Source: an uncultured Alphaproteobacteria bacterium
GTDB lineage: Bacteria; Pseudomonadota; Alphaproteobacteria; HIMB59; GCA-002718135
DNA: 50,293 nt
Direction of reading: 5' to 3'
NCBI GenBank assembly: GCA_902538155.1
Contig: CACBDX010000004.1
Location: forward strand, 1-50,293
The position numbers and the translations under genes are program-made. The number at the start of each line of letters is the position of its first letter. Positions within the stretch are counted from its first letter, which is position 1. This document shows, piece after piece, positions 7,568 through 12,235 of the stretch. The notes under the pieces were generated by a model. That model saw only the letters and a program-made list of their open reading frames with translations. It was not told the origin of the DNA and searched no databases.

Positions 7568-7930
7568 TTACCACATTGAATGGATAATATCGGAACTGTT
7601 AATTTTTACTAAATTCTCACATTTACTTTCAAAATCACTAAAATCATCTCTAAAAGATGCGCCATTGTTTTGTGCTTGCTCAAAATGATTATCTATTCCT
7701 GCTTGACTTTCATAAAGCTCTGTTAAGATTAGAGACATATTCCCTGTTTTATTTCCATCTTTAAATTCAGGGCCTATAGACCAATTTAACATTAGGAGTG
7801 CTTTATCACCTTCCTTTGTATGTGTTTCCTTCATCCATTTTGTATGATCTTCTGCAATTCTTTTTGCAATATCATTAAGTTCAGGTTTAAAAATCCATAA
7901 ATACTGAAGTTGTTTTTTATTTTGAAACAT
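7568..7930 (-). CDS. Hypothetical soluble protein, possibly dimeric alpha/beta-barrel (ABM-like) fold
   Basis: Strong SD (AGGAGG). The LTELYESQAGIDNHF segment resembles the ABM E-x-Y...H pattern; the fold is inference. Confidence 0.65.
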   Translation of the reverse strand: MFQNKKQLQYLWIFKPELNDIAKRIAEDHTKWMKETHTKEGDKALLMLNWSIGPEFKDGNKTGNMSLILTELYESQAGIDNHFEQAQNNGASFRDDFSDFESKCENLVKINSSDIIHSMW

Positions 7931-7985: not shown

Positions 7986-8825
7986 TTATTGTTGAGAATT
8001 ATTTTCCAATGTTTGTACATGAATATCTAGGTTTTCTATCAAAGAATCATTATTAATATTTCCATAAAAAACACCTTTAATAGGTGATGCGTAACTTGCA
8101 TCAAGTCCACAAGAAACACGTACGTATCTTTCATCTGGACTGCACTTATTTGTAGGATCAAATCCCACCCAACCTAAGTCATTTATATAAAATTCTGCCC
8201 AGGCATGTGTAGATTGAAATTCTGAAGAATGGGAATTGTTATGCATATAACCATTTACGTATCTAGCAGGTATTCCTAAAGTTTTTGCTGCAGCAATCAT
8301 AATATGTGCTTGATCCTGACAGACTCCCTTTTTCTGATTAAATGCTTCAATGGCTGTAGTTTGATTATTTGTCGTTAAAGGTTTGTATTCAATTTTATCA
8401 GCTACTAAATTCATAAGATTATGAGATGTTTCTAAATTTTCATTTTCATTAAAACCATTTTTAGCTTCAATAGCTAGATTTTTTATATCCGCATTTGCTT
8501 TTGTTAAATTTGATTCTCTTAAGTAAACTAATGGATCTATTTTATCAGAAGCACTCTGGTAAATTCCTTTTGTATCAAATGTTTCAACTTTTCCAAGAAC
8601 TGTAAATTGAATTTTTTTCACCTTGTTTGTATTTGTAAAACTTTGAATATTATTAGCCTCACCATCCTTATAAATTTTTGATTTTTTGGCTGAGTCGTTA
8701 TGGACATTCCACTCTAAAATTTTAAGACCATTATATTCTGAAGGATGCAGTTTAGTAGTTTGTATCAATCCAGCAACTGGATTTTTATACTCATACTTAG
8801 TTGTGTGTTCGATGATTAGTTCCAT
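7986..8825 (-). CDS. Transglutaminase-like cysteine protease/transamidase (bacterial transglutaminase N-domain plus core)
   Basis: Triad motifs GVCQD, HAW and FDPTN; N-terminal IEHTTxYxY. ATG at 8825 has an AAGGAG SD and is preferred over the track start at 8864. Confidence 0.92.
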   Translation of the reverse strand: MELIIEHTTKYEYKNPVAGLIQTTKLHPSEYNGLKILEWNVHNDSAKKSKIYKDGEANNIQSFTNTNKVKKIQFTVLGKVETFDTKGIYQSASDKIDPLVYLRESNLTKANADIKNLAIEAKNGFNENENLETSHNLMNLVADKIEYKPLTTNNQTTAIEAFNQKKGVCQDQAHIMIAAAKTLGIPARYVNGYMHNNSHSSEFQSTHAWAEFYINDLGWVGFDPTNKCSPDERYVRVSCGLDASYASPIKGVFYGNINNDSLIENLDIHVQTLENNSQQ

Positions 8826-8826
8826 A

Positions 8827-9762
8827 TTAATTAAAAAACTCCTTATGTATTTCGTTATCAACACTAGATATTTTTCTAATAAATTGTGTTACAAATTGAT
8901 GAAGTCCATATTCAACAATAGTTTCTATTTTTTCTTCCTGAATTTTAGTATTTAGATCTTTTAAATTATCATAAATTCTTCCAACCTTTAATGGACTACA
9001 TGTTAGGTTAGTTAAATGTTTAACAATATTCTGAATACAAAAACTTAAAGATCTAGGGCAATTATTATTTAAAACTAAAAAGTCAGCGATTTTAGTTGCG
9101 GTAATATTACCATCGTATGCCCATCTAAAAGCTCTAAAGGAAGATAAAGAGCGAAGCAATATACTCCATTGCATATTATCGATATTACCACCTACATATT
9201 GAGGCTTAGGTAATAAAACAAAATACTTTACATCTAACAATCTGGCAGAATTATCAGCCCTCTCAATAAATAAACCAAGAAAAATAAAATTATAACCATC
9301 ATTTCTAAGCAAAGAACTTAATGATCCTCTAAATAAGTTTACTTGTTCTATTGTCCACTCAGTCAGATCAGGTAAATCAGATTTTGTAAATTTTTTTTCT
9401 TTTAAGTTTAGTATCTCTTGATAAGTTTTATTAATTGCTAACCAAGACTCAGGGGTAAAGGAAGTTCTAACTACTAATGCGTTATTTCGTGCATTAAGAA
9501 TACAATTATAAACAGATGAAGGATTACTTTCATCAAAAAATAAATAATCTTCCACATTTTTCTGTTCAATTGTATCATATTTATTTTTATATCCCTCAAT
9601 TGCTCCAGCAGCAGATAAAACTGATTCCCATTCATTATTATAACCACTTGGATTTGGAAAAAGAGACATTCTATAACCAACATCCAAAAGCCTGGCTGTA
9701 GTTTCAGCTCTTTCCATATAGCGACTGATCCAATATAGATATTCAGCAGTTCTACTTAACAT
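8827..9762 (-). CDS. Alpha-E domain protein (DUF403/COG2307)
   Basis: MLSRTAExLYWxxRYxERAE and a second ERAD..ARLLD motif, plus PRSL. Confidence 0.93.
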   Translation of the reverse strand: MLSRTAEYLYWISRYMERAETTARLLDVGYRMSLFPNPSGYNNEWESVLSAAGAIEGYKNKYDTIEQKNVEDYLFFDESNPSSVYNCILNARNNALVVRTSFTPESWLAINKTYQEILNLKEKKFTKSDLPDLTEWTIEQVNLFRGSLSSLLRNDGYNFIFLGLFIERADNSARLLDVKYFVLLPKPQYVGGNIDNMQWSILLRSLSSFRAFRWAYDGNITATKIADFLVLNNNCPRSLSFCIQNIVKHLTNLTCSPLKVGRIYDNLKDLNTKIQEEKIETIVEYGLHQFVTQFIRKISSVDNEIHKEFFN

Positions 9763-9771
9763 TTTTATTCC

Positions 9772-11178
9772 TCATTCAGCCAAAACCCATGTGTCTTTCA
9801 CACCACCTCCTTGGCTAGAATTTACAACAAACGAACCTTCATTCATTGCAACTCTAGTTAAACCACCAGAACTTAATTGAGCCTGCTCTCCAATTAAACA
9901 AAATGGACGTAAATCTACCCTTCTTCCCTCAACTTGATTTTTGATTAGTGTTGGTGAAAATGAAAGATCAAGTAAAGGTTGAGCTATATATCCTTTTGGA
10001 TTTGTGGAAAGTTTTGTTTTAAATTCATCTATATAGGATTTAGAAGATTTTGGACCTATTAACATCCCATAACCTCCAGATCCATCAACCTCTTTTACGA
10101 CAAGTTCATTTATATTATCTAAAACATATTTTAATTCTTGTTCCTTTTCGCAATTCCATGTTTCAACATTATCTAAGATTGGTTGTTCACCTAAATAAAA
10201 TTTGATCATCTCAGGCACATATATATAAATTGCTTTATCATCGGCTATACCTGCTCCAGGAGCTGAACAAATATTGACACCTCCGGTTCTATAAACATCC
10301 ATAATTCCTGGAATGCCAATTACAGATTGAGGATTAAAACAGAGAGGATCTAAAAAATCATCATCTATTCTTCTATAAACAACATCTACTCTCTTTGGAC
10401 CATCTACTGTTTTCATATAAAGGTATTTACCTTCGACAAATAGATCGGTTGATTCAACCATTTCAATACCCATTTGATCTGATAAAAAACTATGTTCGTA
10501 ATAAGCACTATTCAATGGACCAGGTGTAAGTAATACGCATACGGGTTCTGGATTTTCGCATTTAATAGGAGCCAAGCTCATCAAAGTTTGTAAAAGTCTT
10601 GTAGGATAATCATCTATTGGCGTTACTCTATTGTTATGGAATAGATCAGGAAACATTCGCATCATTATTTCTCTATTTTCTAGCATGTAGGAAACACCAC
10701 TTGGCGTTCGACAATTATCTTCCAAAACAAAATACTCGTTTGGACCTGTTCTAACTAAATCAATACCAATTATAGGACTATAAATGTCTCTAGGAGGTGA
10801 AAAACCAAACATTGAAGGTTCAAAAGATTTTTTTTTGTAAATAATTTCTTTAGGAATTATATTTGCTTTTATTATTTCACCTTGATTATAAATATCAGCA
10901 AGAAACGCATTAAGTGCTTTAGCTCTTTGAATTACTCCTCTTTCTAGCCTTAACCATTCTGTATAAGTAAATATTCTTGGAATTAAATCAAACGGAATAA
11001 TTCTTTCTCTTGCAGTTTCGTTATTTGTAGAAAATGTAATTCCAATATTTCTAAAATGAGATTCAGCTTCAGCGTTCTTTTCAAGAATAACTTTTGAAGT
11101 CATTTGATCCAACCAATCATTAATATTGTTATAATGATTTCTTATAACTGACTCAGATTGATACATTTCATTAAACAT
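9772..11178 (-). CDS. Circularly permuted type 2 ATP-grasp ligase (COG2308)
   Basis: Motifs PFDLIPR, VLEDNxRTPSGVSY, YRRIDD, ADDK, GSGGYG and VNSSQGGGxKDTWV. ATG at 11178 (track uses TTG at 11181). Confidence 0.95.
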   Translation of the reverse strand: MFNEMYQSESVIRNHYNNINDWLDQMTSKVILEKNAEAESHFRNIGITFSTNNETARERIIPFDLIPRIFTYTEWLRLERGVIQRAKALNAFLADIYNQGEIIKANIIPKEIIYKKKSFEPSMFGFSPPRDIYSPIIGIDLVRTGPNEYFVLEDNCRTPSGVSYMLENREIMMRMFPDLFHNNRVTPIDDYPTRLLQTLMSLAPIKCENPEPVCVLLTPGPLNSAYYEHSFLSDQMGIEMVESTDLFVEGKYLYMKTVDGPKRVDVVYRRIDDDFLDPLCFNPQSVIGIPGIMDVYRTGGVNICSAPGAGIADDKAIYIYVPEMIKFYLGEQPILDNVETWNCEKEQELKYVLDNINELVVKEVDGSGGYGMLIGPKSSKSYIDEFKTKLSTNPKGYIAQPLLDLSFSPTLIKNQVEGRRVDLRPFCLIGEQAQLSSGGLTRVAMNEGSFVVNSSQGGGVKDTWVLAE

Positions 11179-11240
11179 CAATTAGTAAACCTCTTGAGAT
11201 TTGAATAGAATAATTTTTTATTATCTAACTTTTTAACCAT
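11178..11240 (-). CDS. Putative 20-aa leader peptide MVKKLDNKKLFYSNLKRFTN
   Basis: ATG at 11240 preceded by AGGAAAGG; its TGA overlaps the ATP-grasp ATG (TGATG). Confidence 0.45.
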   Translation of the reverse strand: MVKKLDNKKLFYSNLKRFTN

Positions 11241-11306
11241 AGTTATAACAAACCTTTCCTATCCGTTATAATTCATGCTTAGCTATGGAAATTAATTATA
11301 AGATCC

Positions 11307-11358
11307 GCGTTCCTTCAGCTTTAGCTTACTTCCGATCTGTTAGTACAGATTGAACGAT
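11307..11358 (-). ncRNA. Glutamine-I riboswitch aptamer (glnA RNA motif), downstream copy
   Basis: Minus strand reads CGTTC-A-ATCTGT-ACTA-ACAGAT-CGGAAGTA-AGC-TAAA-GCT-GAAG-GAACG-C. This gives P1/P2/P3 and the AGUA/GAA E-loop core of the glnA motif. Confidence 0.92.
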
Positions 11359-11372
11359 TTAATAACTTGCAT

Positions 11373-11425
11373 GCGTTCCTTCAACTTTCGTTTACTTCCG
11401 TTTTGAATTATTCAAAATGAACGAA
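11373..11425 (-). ncRNA. Glutamine-I riboswitch aptamer (glnA RNA motif), upstream copy
   Basis: Minus strand reads CGTTC-A-TTTTGAA-TAA-TTCAAAA-CGGAAGTA-AAC-GAAA-GTT-GAAG-GAACG-C. The core is identical to the other copy, with different but still paired P2 and P3. Confidence 0.92.
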
Positions 11426-11527
11426 GAATTTTTATTAATAAAATTTATTTATTTTTAAAAATGAATTTCATACTTATTTGATATGCGTTTTTTGCATATA
11501 CAAAAAAATATTGAATTACTTACGCTT

Positions 11528-12235
11528 TTAATAGTCTTTTATCGATCTAAGAAAACAAATATAAATAAAATAGCCCGTACAAATTAACCATATTAAAAGA
11601 ACAATTGTATCATTTATAATTAAGTTTATTTCTGATTTTGTGACTAATCGTAGAGTTGTTGCTGCCCAAACAACAGTAAAAAAAATCGTTAAATTTCTAA
11701 ATGATTTTACTCTTAGTGGATGAACAAACTTCCATGGAACGAATGTCAATACTGATAGAATAATTATCACAATTAGGTTTATCCATTCATTCGTATTTAA
11801 TATAAAGAAATATAAAACCACAACATTCCAGAGTGCAGGAAAACCTTGGAAATAATAATCATCCGTTTTCATATTAACGTTAATAAAAGTATACAAAGAA
11901 ACTCCAAATATAAGAGCAGGCATAATCATTTCAAAACCTGATGGTACCATTTGAAACCAGTAAATCATTAGAGCTGGATTGATAACGTAATTTAGATAAT
12001 CAATAATTGAATCTAAAATAATTCCATCTAGATTTGGGGCTTTTTCCTCAACACCAACCTTCCTGGCTAAAGTTCCATCAACTCCATCTACAAGTAACGC
12101 CATACCAAGCCATAAAAAACTACCGACTTGATCATCATTTAATATTGATATTAAGGCAAGAAACCCAAGTATAGCGCCAGAACCAGTGAAGGCATGAACA
12201 CCCCATGCGGATATTTGATCTTTATCAACTTTCAT
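11528..12235 (-). CDS. pcs: Phosphatidylcholine synthase (CDP-alcohol phosphatidyltransferase)
   Basis: Motifs VHAFTxSG, DGVDGTLAR, LDxIIDY and YFxGFPALWN. Confidence 0.88.
   Translation of the reverse strand: MKVDKDQISAWGVHAFTGSGAILGFLALISILNDDQVGSFLWLGMALLVDGVDGTLARKVGVEEKAPNLDGIILDSIIDYLNYVINPALMIYWFQMVPSGFEMIMPALIFGVSLYTFINVNMKTDDYYFQGFPALWNVVVLYFFILNTNEWINLIVIIILSVLTFVPWKFVHPLRVKSFRNLTIFFTVVWAATTLRLVTKSEINLIINDTIVLLIWLICTGYFIYICFLRSIKDY

Follow-up and report, generated by a model that had tools for sequence, protein, structure and literature searches.

In the analysed window, a 50,293-nt stretch of DNA from a small marine alphaproteobacterium, two tandem glutamine riboswitch aptamers precede an operon for a circularly permuted (CP) ATP-grasp ligase, an Alpha-E protein and a transglutaminase-like cysteine enzyme. 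The favoured reading, with a probability of roughly 0.6, is that the riboswitch represses translation of the operon in response to glutamine, with a short leader ORF coupled to the first gene. The operon, the fourth member of a nitrogen-acquisition regulon, would then be made under nitrogen scarcity as a nitrogen-scavenging or recycling module. Among comparative clues to the function of a gene, a metabolite-sensing RNA ahead of it is one of the cleanest, and in this case the same operon has a glutamine sensor in two separate lineages and in three leader designs. Because the sensor occurs in both lineages and, in one of them, has a design in common with the leaders of glutamine synthetase and ammonium transporter genes, the system can be placed in nitrogen metabolism, independently of Pseudomonas transcriptome data. 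These genes, widespread and long puzzling, are thus linked to the nitrogen status of the cell.

All three genes lie on the minus strand. The ATP-grasp ligase (9772..11178) comprises 468 aa from its ATG, with a TTG at 11181, and matches PF14403 (E 7e-153) and PF04174 (E 4e-138). Its nearest solved structure, PDB 3n6x (E 3.5e-174), is labelled just "putative glutathionylspermidine synthase". For the 311-aa Alpha-E protein (8827..9762; PF04168, E 8e-86), no solved relative was found by sequence. The transglutaminase-like protein (7986..8825; PF01841, E 1e-24; PF08379, E 1e-11) has 279 aa from its ATG; an alternative GTG is located at 8864, and the L094 ortholog begins at the Met equivalent to ATG 8825. 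It aligns with PDB 3isr (E 6.9e-14) at GVCQD, HAWAE and GFDPT, the putative sites of the catalytic Cys-His-Asp residues of the transglutaminase fold. The ATP-grasp stop and the Alpha-E ATG are separated by 9 nt, the Alpha-E stop and ATG 8825 by 1 nt. Side by side on one strand, the three protein families constitute a CP-ATP-grasp/Alpha-E/transglutaminase system, presumably the COG2308/2307/1305 trio. Most likely, the products combine an ATP-dependent amide ligase with a cysteine hydrolase/transamidase in a module for nitrogen scavenging or recycling. An Anbu gene is absent as a fourth operon member, the next gene downstream being a 120-aa ORF without a Pfam match. In five of five same-genus genomes, PF00227 (Proteasome family) has one match per genome, of about 185 aa and away from the operon. 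Passages of PMC6376114 still call the role of the three genes, with or without Anbu, unconfirmed.

A Rfam cmscan of the whole window returned two RF01739 matches above the gathering threshold and no other family, RF01704 (glutamine-II) included. Aptamer 1 (11370..11425, minus strand; 64.3 bits, E 4.9e-12) and aptamer 2 (11304..11358, minus strand; 63.9 bits, E 6.2e-12) both span model positions 1-53 of 53, each about 29 bits above the cut-off of 35 bits. In the covariance-model alignment, both copies have the three-helix junction, with P1 CGUUC/GAACG and two hairpins, and both contain the junction strands CGGAAGUA and GAAGGAACGC, including the C after P1. P1 is invariant in 17 related leaders, in which the inner hairpins covary, with four pairs changed on both sides. 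By score, predicted junction and sense position in a putative 5' leader, both aptamers belong to the RF01739 family. Measured back from the ATP-grasp start, the end of aptamer 2 is 123-126 nt away and the beginning of aptamer 1 is 244-247 nt away. The original prediction of two sense-strand glnA-motif aptamers before an ATP-grasp/Alpha-E/transglutaminase operon is thereby borne out by Rfam cmscan and Pfam, and its distance of 130-250 nt agrees with the measured 123-247 nt.

Aptamers and operon would belong to a single mRNA, as its 5' leader and its coding part respectively. A consensus scan between the aptamers and the ATP-grasp start found no terminator-like site. A 573-nt RNA-library contig corresponds to positions 10787-11356, from aptamer 2 through 390 nt into the ATP-grasp gene; as DNA carry-over is possible in such contigs and their strand and ends are not given, it is weak evidence for a bridging transcript. 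About 57 nt upstream of aptamer 1 lies an imperfect palindrome, TATGCA-N5-CGCATA (11482..11498, minus strand), a candidate operator or promoter element. It is kept in an alignment of 27 leaders, relatives reading TATGCA-N5-TGCATA, and also occurs upstream of the amt1 leader of the same genome (C22:15446) and in the metagenome loci L143 and L176.

The leader contains several further elements, all on the minus strand. The conserved linker CATGC-A-AGTTAT (11362..11373) begins at the C after P1 of aptamer 1 and is the predicted 5' strand of a long-range helix, helix L. The 3' strand is predicted to be the 3' part of a conserved pyrimidine-rich block, TTTCCATAGCTAAGCATGA (11273..11291), and the 5' part of this block is the predicted anti-RBS element. 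Helix L has 11 pairs that are 100% paired in 17 sequences, 10 of them invariant and one changed on one side only, with no compensatory changes among these sequences; unconstrained RNAfold minimum-free-energy structures contain the linker-block pairing in 5 of 12 leaders. Within a single genome, the ATP-grasp, amt1 and amt2 leaders all have the block, and a variant form occurs in glnA leaders. The 5' part of the block could base-pair with the ribosome-binding sites in amt and glnA leaders, and the best duplex of the block falls on the SD or AUG in 14/14 of them, although the individual duplexes are modest (z -0.2 to -3.7). The corresponding duplex is weak in ATP-grasp leaders (z +0.6 to -2.0). 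The block is followed by a predicted hairpin, hairpin T (TTATAAC/GTTATAA, with GAAAGG in the loop; 11243..11271). By-eye reading of the alignment indicates that its stem varies among leader subgroups yet remains complementary; the formal count on the MAFFT alignment is 71% paired, a low figure because registers differ in that alignment. Last comes a leader ORF of 20 codons (MVKKLDNKKLFYSNLKRFTN; 11178..11240), the TGA stop of which overlaps the ATP-grasp ATG by one base. Such an ORF of 16-20 codons, starting 36-38 nt after the block and ending -8 to +6 nt from the ATP-grasp ATG, is present in 27/27 distinct leaders.

Within the genus of the window, the same leader design, consisting of two aptamers, linker, pyrimidine-rich block and hairpin, is common to glnA, two amt genes and the ATP-grasp operon, which makes the operon the fourth member of a nitrogen-acquisition glutamine-riboswitch regulon. 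The genome of the window has three tandem RF01739 pairs, and the two besides that of the ATP-grasp operon precede amt genes. Five same-genus genomes have four pairs each, the fourth lying before glnA in the three genomes in which the loci were checked. The aptamers are present at 26/26 related loci with ATP-grasp proteins 86-99% identical, counting one locus that ends at a contig edge with one aptamer visible. Of 41 other genomes of the genus that carry the operon, at least 36 have, by coordinates, RF01739 in the same orientation within 250 nt upstream, a count that overstates the number of events since kin among these genomes are not independent. The operon itself is accessory, occurring in 41/64 same-genus genomes and in 0/9 genomes of the other genera of the family, and its ATP-grasp groups with Pelagibacteraceae rather than with the sister family.

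A second lineage, the alphaproteobacterial family f10, carries RF01739 in 24 of its 31 genomes. Of the 28 matches in total, 24, one per genome, are located 3-50 nt upstream of a CP ATP-grasp gene; the ATP-grasp/Alpha-E/transglutaminase order was verified at four loci, with Pfam run on one. These leaders have a single aptamer, usually the sole glutamine riboswitch of the genome, and no leader ORF. In unconstrained folds, the pyrimidine tail pairs with the purine core of the aptamer and leaves the SD free; when P1 is enforced, UCUCUUUC pairs with GAAAGAG. Enforcing P1 lowers RBS accessibility in 15/22 leaders but not in the other 7/22. In two leaders, the AUG lies 3 nt past the aptamer, the aptamer's own GAAGGA being 6 nt upstream of the AUG. 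As modelled, the single-aptamer f10 leaders look like OFF switches.

Since the pairing of aptamers and operon is both conserved and recurrent, the ligase system is truly tied to glutamine sensing, as had been proposed. The alphaproteobacterial context was likewise read correctly, the nearest loci being alphaproteobacterial. The further idea of an RNA acting in place of a protein regulator went too far: a P-II gene is present in 5/5 near-complete genomes of both lineages, and of three g1 genomes checked, two (G054 and G110) have it, by coordinates, immediately ahead of the glnA riboswitch.

The proposed mechanism of the tandem leader starts from helix L, in which the linker after aptamer 1 would hold the block. 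Parts of PMC11477058 place the linchpin C60 of the glutamine riboswitch at the base of P1, and by analogy its counterpart in the window leader would be the first linker base. Glutamine binding may recruit this base and thereby loosen helix L, much as Klahn et al. (PMC6212724, in part) propose that glutamine melts a duplex of the bases just 3' of the gifB aptamer. The released block would then mask a ribosome-binding site, which in the ATP-grasp leader would be that at the start of the leader ORF. Termination of the leader ORF at the ATP-grasp ATG would couple both translations. The net effect would be that glutamine turns the operon off, with expression when nitrogen is scarce.

The opposite sign, with glutamine turning the operon on and the ligase working under nitrogen sufficiency, for example on a Glu/Gln polymer or tag or in the disposal of excess glutamine, is rather unlikely. 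The cyanobacterial gifB riboswitches, the sole RF01739 switches tested experimentally according to the relevant part of PMC6212724, are ON switches, and detection of one P. ubique Amt, whose leader is riboswitch-like, was confined to N-replete cells (PMC3870248); both count against an OFF switch. Enforcing both P1 helices in model folds of tandem leaders opens the RBS in 5/6 amt and ATP-grasp leaders (0.27 to 0.55 for amt2), since the anti-RBS block is then kept in helix L, and leaves the RBS slightly less open in 6/6 glnA leaders. The P1 strands are identical in the two aptamers, which can mis-pair across the linker when glnA leaders are folded without constraint; this would hide the linker without ligand and so also suit an ON switch. 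Naive thermodynamics of the tandem leaders, as modelled, thus points in the opposite direction to OFF or in none. Against an ON switch, the same platform serves glnA and amt, where activation by the product would be physiologically odd, and Klahn et al. call negative control "reasonable" (PMC6212724, in part). The f10 leaders fold as OFF switches in the models, and nitrogen starvation reportedly induces the homologous Anbu operon of P. putida (PMC5666114 and PMC6376114, in part), which the glutamine-OFF reading matches by analogy. The design shared with nitrogen-acquisition genes and the OFF-like f10 leaders together point to expression at low glutamine; on the same two grounds, the Glu/Gln-rich nitrogen store suggested originally is disfavoured.

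It is quite improbable that the riboswitch governs the leader ORF or the upstream region only, the operon being expressed from an internal start or promoter and the pairing being positional. The peptide-coding frame is indeed kept in 27/27 leaders, glutamine-II ("Downstream-peptide") aptamers precede short ORFs (PMC2864571), and in the window subgroup AAGAGG, 11 nt before the ATP-grasp ATG, could permit independent initiation. However, subgroups differ in peptide sequence but agree in ending the ORF at the ATP-grasp ATG, an SD is missing ahead of that ATG in several of them, the f10 aptamers lie close to the ATP-grasp start with no ORF between, and the RNA-library contig bridges aptamer 2 and the ATP-grasp gene. 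That a duplicated amt-type leader landed before a laterally acquired operon as a neutral passenger, without regulatory value, would fit the palindrome and exact block common to the ATP-grasp and amt1 leaders, the accessory distribution and the Pelagibacteraceae grouping, but is scarcely credible given near-consensus aptamer scores across subgroups with ATP-grasp proteins just 86-90% identical, subgroup-specific hairpins and leader ORFs, and the independent architecture by which f10 reaches the same pairing.

With glutamine repression as the preferred reading, the window leader is a candidate OFF-type glutamine riboswitch, and the findings invite concrete experiments on a short leader RNA and three soluble proteins. 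A wider proposal is offered tentatively, as somewhat doubtful: in streamlined marine Alphaproteobacteria, ATP-grasp/Alpha-E/transglutaminase may be a core pathway for nitrogen scavenging, repressed by glutamine. It would be the main, usually only, riboswitch target in one family; in the window lineage it would be served by an undescribed logic-inverting tandem platform, in which the 3' tail of each aptamer holds back a portion of an anti-RBS element, with output passing through the translationally coupled leader ORF.

Several known systems invite comparison. The window leader shares its aptamer family with the cyanobacterial type 1 glutamine riboswitch (glnA RNA motif, RF01739; Synechocystis gifB); both are 5' leaders of nitrogen-related transcripts, with control probably at translation. 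Unlike the single gifB aptamer, it is tandem and alphaproteobacterial, and its target is the ATP-grasp/Alpha-E/transglutaminase operon instead of a DUF4278 GS-inactivating factor. It is also probably an OFF rather than an ON switch, with an additional linker/block layer and a coupled leader ORF. The Anbu operon of Pseudomonas, Yersinia and others (ATP-grasp, Alpha-E, transglutaminase, Anbu) has the same three Pfam families in the same order and a link to nitrogen status, but the window operon lacks the Anbu gene and is under an RNA sensor of glutamine; the Pseudomonas Anbu operon is probably under NtrC/sigma-54. As in the glutamine-II riboswitch (Downstream-peptide motif, RF01704), a glutamine aptamer is followed by a short ORF; in glutamine-II this encodes a conserved small protein, in the window a non-conserved leader peptide with its stop abutting the next gene.

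Also closely related are the tandem glnA RNAs of marine metagenomes, which precede genes for glutamine synthetase and for ammonium transporters (Weinberg et al. 2010; PMC2864571). Klahn et al. 2018 note them again without knowing their taxonomic affiliation, and leave this and the sign of the glnA/amt riboswitches open in the part of PMC6212724 concerned. The ATP-grasp operon is absent from the glnA-RNA associations named in the main texts of both papers, and literature searches of main texts found no description, in line with the original impression that the pairing had not been characterised. The marine glnA/amt riboswitches now gain a taxonomic home in two families of small-genome marine Alphaproteobacteria. 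Leaders of glnA and amt in the window genus and family are exactly of this tandem kind; the ATP-grasp leader is built of the same modules and differs in the genes it regulates.

Two full-length glutamine aptamers are the only Rfam matches in the 50-kb window at the gathering threshold, which is 35 bits for RF01739. Both lie on the minus strand: aptamer 1 at 11425-11370 (64.3 bits) and aptamer 2 at 11358-11304 (63.9 bits). ORF calling and Pfam place three genes on the same strand 3' of them, encoding a CP-ATP-grasp protein (CP_ATPgrasp_2/1, E 7e-153 and 4e-138), an Alpha-E protein (E 8e-86) and a transglutaminase-like protein (Transglut_core, 1e-24; Bact_transglu_N, 1e-11). With the transglutaminase start at ATG 8825, the position used by an ortholog, the intergenic gaps in the operon are 9 nt and 1 nt. 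The window scan found no terminator-like site between the aptamers and the ATP-grasp gene. The original prediction, which had placed tandem sense-orientated aptamers before these tightly coupled genes, is correct in every particular according to Rfam, Pfam and the ORF positions.

The transglutaminase gene is followed by a 120-aa ORF (7568-7930, minus strand) without a Pfam or NCBIfam match; it probably lies outside the operon, because it is present at one related locus (L088) and absent from the same place at another (L091). On the other side, the gene 5' of the leader (11528-12235, minus strand) resembles phosphatidylcholine synthase models, at 233.8 bits and thus below their cut-off of 300. 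It stops 102 nt before aptamer 1, and since no terminator is predicted there, read-through into the leader may occur.

The leader, on the minus strand, has several further elements. The aptamers are separated by a conserved 12-nt linker, CAUGC-A-AGUUAU. Aptamer 2 is followed by a U-rich spacer, the invariant block UUUCCAUAGCUAAGCAUGA (11291-11273), a hairpin, T, with GAAAGG in its loop (11271-11243), and a leader ORF of 20 codons (11240-11178), the UGA of which overlaps the ATP-grasp AUG. Linker and block recur in the genome's own amt leaders, and throughout the family the glnA leaders have both in variant form. Upstream of the aptamers lies an imperfect palindrome, TATGCA-N5-CGCATA (11498-11482). 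Its 17-bp form, TATGCA-N5-TGCATA, precedes the ATP-grasp and amt1 riboswitch leaders by 55-70 nt, is absent before the glnA and amt2 leaders, and also occurs in the metagenome loci L143 and L176. This candidate transcription-factor site could add transcriptional control. As a regulon marker it is uninformative, the strict form having three sites in the genome: at amt1 (C22:15446), at an intergenic position (C14:20673) and at C42:3718, upstream of a 59-aa ORF.

Six RF01739 matches, arranged as three tandem pairs, occur in the 1.07-Mb assembly to which the window belongs (61% complete, 29% G+C); both pairs outside the window precede an ammonium transporter gene, as identified by Pfam. Five genomes of the genus with higher completeness each contain four pairs (eight matches). 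Three of these genomes were fetched, and there the pairs precede the gene for glutamine synthetase, two genes for ammonium transporters (amt) and the ATP-grasp operon; from these positions the glutamine-riboswitch regulon of the genus consists of glnA, amt, amt and the ATP-grasp operon. Two genera share a conserved ORF of 119-124 aa without a Pfam match, placed between their riboswitch-controlled amt genes or behind them (L007:5117-5491, contig C22 of the window's genome; L101:1928-2287); it might encode a small regulator.

RF01739 is present in 59 of 60 other genomes of the genus and, counting genomes at least 70% complete, in 71/73 of the family versus 0/49 of the only other family in the order. 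Seven loci were fetched from six further genera of this family: five have the tandem pair in front of glnA and one has it in front of amt; the contig of the seventh (L100) ends before any gene. The ATP-grasp gene is found in 41/64 genomes of the genus versus 0/9 of the family's other genera. The sister family has it in 34/49 genomes, solely as a 47-50% identical gene, and the Alpha-E partner (PF04168) was found in 0/5 of its genomes, one of them 99% complete. By coordinates, RF01739 lies on the same strand no more than 250 nt upstream of the operon in 36 of the 41 other same-genus genomes that have it, the remaining five (G021, G038, G108, G119, G125) being undecidable owing to contig ends or matches beyond those listed.

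A scan of ATP-grasp loci with one genome per species gave 80 loci. Aptamers precede the operon in all 26 with an ATP-grasp protein 86-99% identical to that of the window, one cut locus showing a single aptamer. At the 17 loci from Pelagibacteraceae (73-77% identical) neither regex nor Rfam found aptamers, and no other Rfam family reached its gathering score; the 37 more distant loci have no aptamers by regex. Four Pelagibacteraceae loci (L036, L039, L044, L045) share the motif GTCAATTTGGCA, inverted in L045, within the spacer of about 330 nt that precedes this operon; it lies some 60-70 nt before the ATP-grasp start and is a possible protein operator that would take the place of the riboswitch.

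Further afield, RF01739 was found in 0/150 other genomes of a phylum sample and in 1/150 other alphaproteobacterial families of a class sample with one genome per family. A loose pattern for tandem aptamers returned at least 119 metagenome stretches, and among those stored, regex identified genuine tandem aptamers in three (L143, L176, L205), two of which end right after the aptamers, leaving the downstream genes unreadable. L205 (2107-2214, plus strand; contig of 34% G+C) differs in design from the window leader, with a much shorter linker and with GGGAGG and a 38-codon ORF after the aptamers.

The sole class-sample match, in a second family designated f10, lies 42 nt upstream of a CP-ATP-grasp gene. 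Within f10, RF01739 occurs in 24/31 genomes and 9/11 genera, mostly as a single copy. In each of the 24 genomes one match, hence 24 of 28 in all, precedes the ATP-grasp gene by 3-50 nt; the f10 operon matches that of the window gene for gene, with identities of 59-61%, 47-53% and 38-44%. As to the other four matches, one (L226) precedes a gene for a 211-aa protein with a signal-like N-terminus, and the remaining three are identical, shorter matches on three contigs of a different, 2.0-Mb genome (L250, L251 and L252 of G299), in each case with the same 77-aa ORF starting 18 nt further downstream.

How the aptamers might act on translation is suggested by predicted helices. In unconstrained RNAfold predictions, the linker pairs with the 3' part of the block in 5/12 leaders, forming a helix, L, that encloses aptamer 2; with the aptamers enforced, helix L forms in 6/6 amt and ATP-grasp leaders. 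In a MAFFT alignment of 17 ATP-grasp leaders it is 100% paired and nearly invariant, so that covariation is uninformative and the helix is compatible with the data but unproven. Hairpin T is 71% paired in the MAFFT alignment, a count that is no test of it because the subgroups are misaligned. It may be an intrinsic terminator, having a U-run behind it in some glnA and amt leaders; the ATP-grasp leader lacks such a run. The block's 5' portion has complementarity to the ribosome-binding site. Its target is UAUGGAG in amt leaders, UUAUGAAAU, comprising the start codon, in most glnA leaders, and UAUGGAGG in the one glnA leader with a 'CC' form of the block. The best block duplex falls on the Shine-Dalgarno (SD) sequence or the AUG in 14/14 amt and glnA leaders, with modest z values of -0.2 to -3.7. 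In ATP-grasp leaders the target is less clear (z +0.6 to -2.0), being CUAUGG at the leader-ORF start in the window's subgroup and lying inside the leader ORF in the others. Helix L and the masking helix overlap and are mutually exclusive.

According to a proposal of Klahn et al., the bases immediately 3' of the aptamer form a duplex that glutamine melts (PMC6212724). In the window leader this duplex would be helix L, the melting of which would free the anti-RBS block. That glutamine turns the operon OFF has a probability of about two in three, and four lines point to it. The ATP-grasp operon shares its leader platform with glnA and amt. In unconstrained folds of f10 leaders, a pyrimidine tail pairs with the purine core of the aptamer and the SD is open; with P1 enforced, UCUCUUUC of the tail pairs with the SD GAAAGAG, and accessibility of the ribosome-binding site drops in 15/22 leaders. 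In two f10 leaders the AUG follows the aptamer after 3 nt, and the only SD-like element is the aptamer's own GAAGGA. Finally, the C that follows P1 is described as entering a 'linchpin' pair when glutamine binds (PMC11477058), which together with the melting proposed by Klahn et al. makes up the fourth line.

The opposite sign, activation by glutamine, is a less probable alternative. The cyanobacterial switches that have been tested are ON switches, and one Pelagibacter Amt whose leader is riboswitch-like was detected in nitrogen-replete cells only (PMC3870248). A simple thermodynamic test also favours it, the ribosome-binding site being more open with the aptamers enforced in 5/6 tandem amt and ATP-grasp leaders. 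Metatranscriptome contigs from four runs match the operon with a likeness of at least 90%; one of 573 nt (10787-11356) reaches from aptamer 2 into the ATP-grasp gene, and a second crosses the ATP-grasp/Alpha-E junction. They argue weakly for a single transcript, because such libraries can hold DNA and the contigs show no ends.

A maximum-likelihood tree of 26 ATP-grasp proteins groups the window's genus with the Pelagibacteraceae (support 100/99) and places f10 on the next branch (89/86), the sister-family homologs being very distant. Since the Pelagibacteraceae group with the window's genus, the two riboswitch-linked clades are not sisters. Because of this and the different build of their leaders, two recruitments of the riboswitch seem likelier than a single gain with subsequent loss in the Pelagibacteraceae.

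The leader ORF is present in 27/27 distinct leaders. Its start lies 36-38 nt beyond the block, and its end falls within -8 to +6 nt of the ATP-grasp AUG. The ORF encodes five unrelated peptide sequences among the subgroups and is read as a device for translational coupling rather than a functional peptide. A role of the peptide as ribosomal precursor and substrate of the ATP-grasp ligase is unlikely, because it is wholly different between subgroups and absent in f10.

For the ATP-grasp protein the nearest solved structure is PDB 3n6x (E 3.5e-174), annotated as 'putative glutathionylspermidine synthase'. The transglutaminase-like protein aligns with 3isr and has its Cys, His and Asp motifs in place; a sequence search found no solved relative of Alpha-E. 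A complex prediction for ATP-grasp and Alpha-E, with alignments of 27 rows each, scored 0.02 against a mark of 0.32, which speaks neither for nor against binding.

P-II is encoded in 5/5 near-complete genomes from both lineages. The RNA is thus an addition to a protein regulator, contrary to the earlier suggestion that it stands in place of one. In G054 (C1:45516-46021) and G110 (C1:376581-377084) the P-II gene, by its coordinates, immediately precedes the tandem riboswitch and glnA, so that the classical glnB-glnA pair is, judging by gene order, split by an RNA sensor. The riboswitch at glnA leader loci is closely preceded by a terminator-like hairpin, GACAG...CUGUC, with a U-run behind it.

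Sequence analysis could hardly make the cis-regulatory link between riboswitch and operon any firmer, and the operon belongs to nitrogen metabolism. The text of Weinberg et al. (2010) names P-II, GS, GOGAT, ammonium transporters and PMT1479 as targets of glnA RNAs and notes tandem copies (PMC2864571), and that of Klahn et al. (2018) confirms the glnA and transporter links in environmental DNA only, leaving taxon and sign open (PMC6212724). The full-text literature searched does not describe a glutamine riboswitch with a transglutaminase/ATP-grasp operon, a pairing that supplementary gene lists may hold. On a link between operon and nitrogen, that literature offers nothing beyond papers on the Anbu operon, which is reported to be induced by nitrogen starvation in P. 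putida and the role of which is called unconfirmed (PMC5666114, PMC6376114); ORFs and Pfam reveal no Anbu gene at the window operon. The operon's domains correlate with urea-metabolism domains in metagenomes (PMC3597751). Most likely, the operon is made when glutamine is low, and the nitrogen store envisaged in the original prediction is a less good fit to such timing. Expression at low glutamine would fit an ATP-dependent amide ligase and a cysteine hydrolase or transamidase that capture or recycle nitrogen, a chemistry that we would liken, by analogy, to transient gamma-glutamylation pathways.
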